Source: a virus
Lineage: Duplodnaviria > Heunggongvirae > Uroviricota > Caudoviricetes
Strand: one strand, 5' to 3'
Virus record (IMG/VR): IMGVR_UViG_2693429557_000009
Coordinates: 1 to 6,714 of that record
Length of the DNA: 6,714 nucleotides
Shown: in pieces, positions 3,280 through 3,529 of the stretch
How the letters are laid out: each line of letters opens with the position of its first letter
Position numbering within the stretch: position 1 is the stretch's first letter
Notes under the pieces: generated by a model
The model's database searches: none
Told to the model about the DNA's origin: nothing
What the model saw: the letters and a program-made list of their open reading frames with translations, nothing else
Made by a program: the position numbers and the translations under genes

Positions 3280-3355
3280 GGCCCTTTAGCTCAGTGGTGA
3301 GAGCGAGCGACTCATAATCGCCAGGTCGCTGGTTCAAATCCAGCAAGGGCCACCA
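3280..3355 (+). tRNA. ileZ: tRNA-Ile (anticodon CAU, lysidine-type, ileX/ileZ-like; formally could also be read as Met)
   Basis: Cloverleaf folded by hand: 7 bp acceptor stem ggccctt/aagggcc, D arm gctc...gagc, anticodon loop ctCATaa, T arm ggttcaaatcc, encoded CCA; close to E. coli tRNA-Ile2 as recalled. Confidence 0.88.
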
Positions 3356-3362
3356 TCACATA

Positions 3363-3439
3363 CCGCCATTAGCTCATCAGGAAAGAGCGCCAGCCTTCGA
3401 AGCTGGCTGCGCGGGGTTCAAGTCCCCGATGGCGGTCCA
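3363..3439 (+). tRNA. argN: tRNA-Arg (anticodon UCG, reads CGA/CGG)
   Basis: Acceptor stem ccgccat/atggcgg, anticodon stem ccagc/gctgg with loop ctTCGaa, T arm cggggttcaagtccccg, encoded CCA. Confidence 0.88.
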
Positions 3440-3452
3440 TTATCTGCATCAT

Positions 3453-3529
3453 GCGTTGTTAGCTCAGCCGGACAGAGCAATTGCCTTCTAAGCAATCGGT
3501 CACTGGTTCGAATCCAGTACAACGCGCCA
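3453..3529 (+). tRNA. argO: tRNA-Arg (anticodon UCU, reads AGA/AGG)
   Basis: Acceptor stem gcgttgt/acaacgc, anticodon stem attgc/gcaat with loop ctTCTaa, T arm actggttcgaatccagt, encoded CCA. Confidence 0.88.

Follow-up and report, generated by a model that had tools for sequence, protein, structure and literature searches.

An ileZ-argN-argO tRNA cassette between Q and the lysis genes of an stx-empty lambdoid prophage, a probable general supply of rare-codon decoders

Background

Three tRNA genes that read codons rare in E. coli lie between a DNA methyltransferase gene and nanS-p in the prophage DNA studied here (positions 1 to 6,714 of the IMG/VR virus record IMGVR_UViG_2693429557_000009; this whole stretch of 6,714 nucleotides is called the window below). 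What are these genes for, and are they tied to the genes that surround them? The initial annotation of the locus proposed that the triad was placed to match rare codons among the first codons of both neighbors, in an arrangement reported upstream of stx in Stx phages and coupled here to a different cargo.

Lambdoid phages commonly carry tRNA genes just 3' of Q (PMC3636060). All the Stx2 phages have a tRNA set between q and stx, with nanS-p downstream; the set is Met(CAU)-Arg-Arg in the Stx2a, 2c and 2d phages and Met-Arg in those of Stx2e (PMC7366253). Other lambdoid arrays found 3' of Q, namely Asn-Thr in SfI, Sf6, ST64T and phage 21 and Thr-Gly in the Stx2f phages (PMC3636060, PMC7366253), share with the triad both the slot and the proposed role of rare-codon decoders, but their anticodons differ. 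The idea that such genes supplement rare decoders is credited to Schmidt et al. 1997 in PMC3636060.

Results and discussion

Identity and integrity of the three tRNA genes

ARAGORN detects just three tRNA genes in the window, all of them on the plus strand: ileZ (3280-3355), with a CAU anticodon (CAT in the DNA) and of the Ile2 type, argN (3363-3439), a tRNA-Arg(UCG), and argO (3453-3529), a tRNA-Arg(UCU). The Rfam tRNA model, whose gathering score is 29, gives them 72.5, 58.0 and 70.1 bits, respectively, and the 3' CCA is encoded in all three. Since their scores are above the threshold, their CCA is encoded and they are more conserved than their flanks (see below), they can be regarded as functional genes; ileZ, argN and argO are intact here and there is no pseudogene among them. 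The positions and anticodons that had been read from the letters alone were thus recovered, and the objection that the genes might score as pseudogenes or carry other anticodons finds no support in scores of 58-72.5 bits. The minimum-energy fold of argN is a clean cloverleaf; minimum free energy gives no cloverleaf for ileZ and argO, for which the covariance-model scores were relied on instead.

The assignment of ileZ to Ile2 rests on its likeness to the K-12 gene ileX and on the annotation by NCBI's PGAP of identical copies of this CAU gene as tRNA-Ile. It is identical to ileX at 68 of 76 positions (89%), anticodon loop included, and is far from metT. A compensatory U6-A67 pair replaces the C6-G67 of K-12 ileX, and the acceptor stem (GGCCCUU/AAGGGCC) contains both C4-G69 and C5-G68, two pairs that are determinants for TilS. 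Judged by its sequence, the body of ileZ is therefore that of a tRNA-Ile2, resembling ileX rather than the Met tRNAs, and the gene is predicted to read AUA once the host TilS has turned C34 into lysidine. In the Rfam alignment, ileZ has two paired positions marked as non-standard, with the same bases in every copy examined; the first pair of the anticodon stem, at positions 27/43 in our own numbering (window 3306 and 3322), is a non-standard A-C where K-12 ileX has G-U.

The two arginine tRNAs read different codon boxes. argN decodes CGA and probably also CGG, and we know of no K-12 gene carrying its UCG anticodon. argO is an AGA/AGG reader and a paralogue of the host argU, to which it is ~78% identical, with the same 7-nt anticodon loop. 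Decoding of AUA and of AGA/AGG is thus shared with the host genes ileX/ileY and argU, of which ileZ and argO are diverged paralogues carried on a mobile element. In laboratory practice, argU and ileY are the genes added in order to express AT-rich foreign genes.

The window is an stx-empty late region

The window is the late regulatory and lysis region of a lambdoid prophage. Pfam identifies RusA (419-793), the antiterminator Q (790-1611, 273 aa; Antiterm, 183.7 bits), a DNA N6/N4 methyltransferase 5' of the tRNAs (2181-3239, plus strand; PF01555, 144 bits), nanS-p on their 3' side (4038-5891, plus strand; DUF1737, SASA esterase and DUF6645), a P21-type holin (6042-6257) and DUF1327 (YdfR; 6262-6576). 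The nanS-p homologues of related loci are annotated as yjhS/NanS or SASA esterase. Q and the holin bracket the tRNA cassette, and this order is common to the related loci. Directly 3' of Q, the segment 1613-1716 (plus strand) contains a candidate late promoter PR' (TTGATT-16/17 nt-TAAATT), which was read by eye, agrees with the consensus at 8 of 12 positions and falls below the threshold of the promoter scan, followed by the terminator tR' (1689-1708 and a T run), whose hairpin was found by the terminator scan as AACCCGCCGCCGAGCGGGTT plus the T run. A second terminator-like hairpin lies 3' of a small ORF, at 2017-2034. Given these two hairpins, late transcription would need Q in order to reach the tRNAs.

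The 250-bp triad is 96.0% identical to that of phage Lahn2 (GenBank AM072972.1), in which the genes are named ileZ, argN and argO, and 97.6% identical to that of the Stx2a phage phi345, which bears the same labels; the identity proposed by the initial annotation is therefore confirmed. The triad was found in 3061 of 5426 complete E. coli genomes (56%), with a median of 1 copy and a maximum of 13, and at least 564 genomes have a window-like arrangement devoid of stx, that is, a place covering at least 80% of the whole window. The cassette beside stx2 has reportedly been described since the late 1990s, by Schmidt in 1997 and Plunkett in 1999. The triad is thus the known ileZ-argN-argO cassette of lambdoid (Stx-type) prophages, common and already annotated by name. 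None of the papers searched names ileZ, argN and argO together, and the prior art is made up of the GenBank annotations, three papers (PMC7366253, PMC3636060 and PMC4631060) and the work of Schmidt 1997 and Plunkett 1999. With the cassette named in public records and its stx-less form present in hundreds of complete E. coli genomes, the locus has little weight as a discovery; the useful outcome is a correction, namely that the tRNAs are not tied to their immediate neighbors and that the window corresponds to an empty-site form.

The comparison with Stx2 phages bears directly on the question of cargo. In the phages of the Lahn2/933W/VT2-Sakai type, the cassette has the same three anticodons, order, strand and spacing as in the window, at 96-98% identity, occupies the same slot 3' of Q and 5' of nanS-p and the lysis genes, and is followed by the same terminator after argO. 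The 933W type differs in having a 144-aa Q and only a 99-nt remnant of the methylase, whereas the window has the 273-aa Q, the small ORF and a full methylase. The Stx2a phage Stx2_EH1910 (LC567834.1) has the same gene order as the window, rusA-Q(273 aa)-hyp65-methylase-tRNAx3-...-nanS-p-holin, but carries stx2AB (and iraM) between argO and nanS-p, which the window lacks. According to blastn, window positions 416-3567 correspond to positions 1501-4659 of the Stx2_EH1910 sequence (92.7% identity) and 3573-3806 to positions 5995-6234, and the 1335-bp stx2AB block between them (4660-5994) maps to window 3568-3572, right after the argO terminator. These breakpoints place the stx2AB site at 3568-3572, where it is empty here; there is no stx ORF in the window, and stxA and stxB are absent directly 3' of argO. 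From this alignment, the window is the stx-empty form of the late region of an Stx2 phage. The view that the triad is coupled here to a different cargo can hence be abandoned: the methylase and nanS-p flank it in Stx2 phages too (PMC7366253), stx2AB alone is missing, and both genes are shared backbone or accessory genes instead of an alternative cargo.

The upstream neighbor varies in length among these phages. In phi345, a 99-nt ORF annotated as 'DNA methyltransferase' lies just 5' of ileZ (positions 3862-3960 of the phi345 locus). This ORF appears to be what is left, at the 3' end, of the methylase gene found whole in the window, which suggests that the 933W type derives, through a deletion, from a methylase-tRNA arrangement.

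The borders of the cassette

A consensus scan detects a promoter-like site at 3242-3270 on the plus strand, TTGAAG-17 nt-TATTAT; nine GC-rich nucleotides, GCGGCTCCC, come next, ahead of the mature 5' end of ileZ. Taken alone, this match is no better than chance, as the scan found 2 sites where 2.0 were expected. The alignment of three unrelated upstream contexts (the methylase 3' end of the window, tR' in phage 640R1, where the same tR' hairpin directly abuts the ileZ promoter-like site, and other DNA in strain PEC148) shows that the homology among them starts exactly at the -35-like TTG (window 3242) and that TTG...TATnAT is invariant over the three, within a TTGnnn-17 nt-TATTAT motif. In K-12, ileX has a TATAAT similarly placed, close to the mature 5' end. 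The segment 3242-3270 is thus a candidate sigma-70 promoter belonging to the cassette itself, and would suggest a Q-independent transcription of the tRNAs.

On the other side, the terminator scan and folding reveal an intrinsic-terminator-like hairpin 3' of argO, at 3544-3569 on the plus strand (GGCTCGC-TTTT-GCGGGCC followed by T8; -13.8 kcal/mol, z = -3.85), and this hairpin with its T run is kept in 8 of 9 loci. Because the boundaries of the module coincide with the -35-like TTG and with this terminator, in a layout that resembles that of K-12 ileX, we infer that the cassette is a self-contained unit within the late operon, running from its own promoter over three tRNAs to a terminator; it could thus be transcribed in the lysogen. 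The earlier description of the tRNAs as members of the same operon as the methylase and nanS-p is plausible, but incomplete if, as it seems, the cassette has a promoter and a terminator to itself.

Codon use in the prophage and in the host

The codons read by the triad were counted in the annotated CDS of a 96.5%-identical prophage of E. coli 042 (65 genes, 12,761 codons) and in 39 core host genes (14,477 codons; 31 genes from one host region and 8 flanking the 640R1 prophage). All five cognate codons are commoner in the prophage than in the host (each p < 2e-5): per 1000 codons, the prophage and host frequencies are respectively 7.3 and 3.3 for ATA (odds ratio 2.3), 7.7 and 1.0 for AGA (7.5), 4.6 and 0.8 for AGG (5.6), 6.3 and 2.8 for CGA (2.3) and 12.6 and 3.4 for CGG (3.8), enrichments that are probably overstated with respect to a genome-wide average, the host sample being small and rich in well-expressed genes. 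The genome-wide values of K-12 are somewhat higher and would roughly halve the fold changes. The expectation that rare codons would be more frequent in the prophage than in the host is thus upheld, with odds ratios of 2.3-7.5.

The distribution of these codons within the prophage does not point to the late genes. The genes from int to Q, 5' of the tRNAs, have ATA, AGA, AGG and CGA at roughly double the frequency of those 3' of Q, so that these four codons are not concentrated in late genes; CGG alone is higher there, with 16.7 per 1000 in the structural genes. Nor is the enrichment specific to prophages with the triad. The one non-carrier used for comparison, prophage 640R1, has the same type of Q and lacks the Arg tRNAs, and it retains ileZ, so that it provides no tRNA-free control for ATA; its rates of AGA, AGG, CGA and CGG are the same as those of the carrier (odds ratios 0.70-1.13, not significant). 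In a published comparison, too, adaptation did not differ between tRNA carriers and the remaining lambdoid phages (P = 0.93; PMC4631060). A specific tie between the codon enrichment and the triad is not supported, in view of the equal rates of the non-carrier and the excess of four codons in early genes.

Conservation and decay among related loci

In an alignment of nine loci, variation is found in the spacers and flanks but hardly at all in ileZ and argO; the 76 nt of ileZ are invariant in seven of the loci. When four loci are aligned, there are no variable columns in ileZ or in argO, 9 in the 77 of argN and 17 in the 55 of the upstream flank. argN is the labile member of the triad, with many substitutions, and neither ARAGORN nor Rfam recognizes it in four of the nine loci: Stx2c_2409, in which the anticodon arm is deleted (positions 4077-4156 of that locus), LS4, Z1322 and the Stx2e prophage of ETEC1730. 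The last three share, at around positions 2584-2664 of their loci, an 80-81-nt argN variant in which the acceptor, D and T arms are kept and the anticodon arm is abnormal, with what we read as an 11-nt loop. PGAP labels the decayed slot as tRNA-Val, as tRNA-OTHER or not at all. The decay in the ETEC1730 Stx2e prophage matches the report that Stx2e phages have only the Met-Arg pair (PMC7366253). Among the 2589 full-length records, subtraction of identity bands would place ~947 in the 80-90% band that is typical of the variants with a decayed argN.

ileZ also occurs at 100% identity in two settings beyond the triad. In phage 640R1 it is found alone, directly after tR' (positions 21332-21407 of that locus), and in strain PEC148 it heads an Ile-Lys(UUU)-Thr(UGU)-Gly(UCC) array (2501-2810) in the same slot 3' of Q. 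These settings indicate that the tRNA slot 3' of Q is modular and that ileZ is its constant member. Selection would act mainly on ileZ and argO, argN being dispensable in many lineages.

A proposed role and its alternatives

The reading that we favor, and regard as probable, is that the triad is the ileZ-argN-argO cassette, lying between Q and the lysis genes of an stx-empty prophage, and that it supplies decoders for AUA, AGA/AGG and CGA/CGG to general benefit, with a promoter and a terminator that seem to be its own. The cassette would be expressed in the lysogen from its candidate promoter; on induction, Q-modified polymerase starting at PR', ~1.6 kb upstream, would read through it and provide additional transcription. 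The tRNAs would be cut from the transcript by the host tRNA-processing enzymes and would supply extra decoders for AUA (after the action of TilS), AGA/AGG and CGA/CGG, easing the translation of AT-rich, poorly adapted genes of mobile elements in general, be they early, late or otherwise horizontally acquired. Such a benefit would be general and not directed at the methylase or nanS-p in particular. That the cassette benefits the phage at all is a proposal: 640R1 has the same AGA, AGG, CGA and CGG rates in the absence of the Arg tRNAs, and the published carriers are no differently adapted (PMC4631060).

A narrower version of this proposal can be entertained, tentatively. In it, the cassette is autonomous, with ileZ as its mobile and invariant core, and its expression in the lysogen is independent of Q; it would mainly raise the capacity of the host for AT-rich, horizontally acquired genes, such as early phage genes and virulence genes, rather than for late genes, and selection on argN would be relaxed, leading to its repeated loss. 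The apparent promoter of the cassette, the near-invariance of ileZ and argO and the repeated decay of argN could merit a survey at the population scale, of incremental value.

Several other explanations may be considered. The one implied by the initial annotation is that the triad is placed to serve the first-codon rare codons of the methylase and nanS-p, the expression of which would be translationally coupled to it. The three codons on which this idea relied are indeed where it put them: ATA is codon 7 of the methylase (2199-2201), and AGG and CGA are codons 10 and 20 of nanS-p (4065-4067 and 4095-4097). nanS-p thus has two cognate codons in codons 2-20, which, given the frequency of these codons in the gene itself, has a probability of 0.06; for the methylase, the corresponding value is 0.54 (eight genes, uncorrected). 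Yet at least one cognate codon is present in codons 2-20 of about half of all genes, namely 4 of 8 in the window, 34 of 65 in the prophage, 36 of 56 in 640R1 and 18 of 39 in the core host set, and rare codons are more strongly enriched at the 5' end in the host genes (odds ratio 3.15) than in those of the prophage (1.44). Moreover, nanS-p has the lowest cognate-codon frequency of the window genes (2.1%), and in other prophages the same cassette adjoins stx2, stx2e, TerB or iraM, or lies directly beside the holin. The positional link was rejected as being at chance level, alike in prophage and host genes, and a coupling to the neighbors seems highly improbable. A different functional explanation is that phage tRNAs replace those that the infected host loses by cleavage or depletion, for instance to anticodon nucleases or, in the case of tRNA-Arg, to colicin D. 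Anticodon nucleases have tRNA-Lys and tRNA-Thr as reported targets, and colicin D cleaves Arg tRNAs; the content of the slot 3' of Q changes from one lambdoid prophage to another, with Lys(UUU), Thr(UGU) and Gly(UCC) among its possible occupants, as would suit such a role. Nevertheless, the anticodon loops of argO and ileZ are those of the host argU and ileX, with no obvious escape changes, no nuclease specific for ileZ, argN or argO was identified in this analysis, and the codons served are those over-used by the prophage, which the simpler supply model already explains. We therefore hold this replacement role to be very unlikely.

The two remaining explanations grant the tRNAs no decoding benefit or a secondary one. 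They could be neutral relics, the scar of a past capture of DNA, carried along with the late region. The decay of argN in several lineages, the codon use of carriers, which does not differ from that of non-carriers (640R1; PMC4631060), and the treatment of the tRNAs as markers of a captured region in PMC7366253 would agree with this. Against it, ileZ and argO are almost invariant beside varying spacers and flanks, ileZ is kept at 100% identity in three unrelated contexts, and the triad occurs in over half of the complete genomes, often in multiple copies. The divergence of ileZ from ileX (89% identity) and of argO from argU (~78%) also speaks against a recent capture from E. coli, so that we deem a functionless relic very unlikely. 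Alternatively, the cassette could be chiefly a recombination landmark, a conserved block directing the insertion or exchange of accessory genes such as stx. stx2AB does lie directly after the terminator of the cassette, and the accessory genes on its 3' side differ among prophages. Yet the window contains neither att-like repeats or duplications of tRNA 3' ends nor an integrase gene nearby, the insertion point falls after the terminator and outside any tRNA, and a decoding function would in any case be compatible with such a landmark. Of the explanations weighed here, this is the one to which we give the least credence, and the general supply of decoders is retained.

The interval between argO and nanS-p

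The DNA between the cassette and nanS-p has features of its own. Window positions 3606-3815 (plus strand) give a full-length match to the Rfam family STnc100 (RF02076), at 148.8 bits for a gathering score of 47; this family comprises prophage sRNAs and is related to PasD (bioRxiv 10.64898/2026.05.13.724894). In strains LS4 and Z1322 the same element is found between the tRNAs and nanS-p, in Stx2c_2409 it lies 3' of stx2, and in Stx2_EH1910 the stretch that immediately follows stx2B aligns to the STnc100 region of the window. The E. coli 042 prophage is longer at this point: ~380 additional bases (positions 23253-23632 of that locus) separate argO from its STnc100-like region, and a second, partial STnc100-like copy is among them (window 3727-3812 against 23300-23382, 81%). 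Finally, a strong terminator-like hairpin (GCCCGCG...CGCGGGC followed by T7) is found on the minus strand at 3823-3844, between the STnc100-like element and nanS-p; the window has no annotated minus-strand gene at this place, which in related prophages is occupied on the minus strand by iraM.
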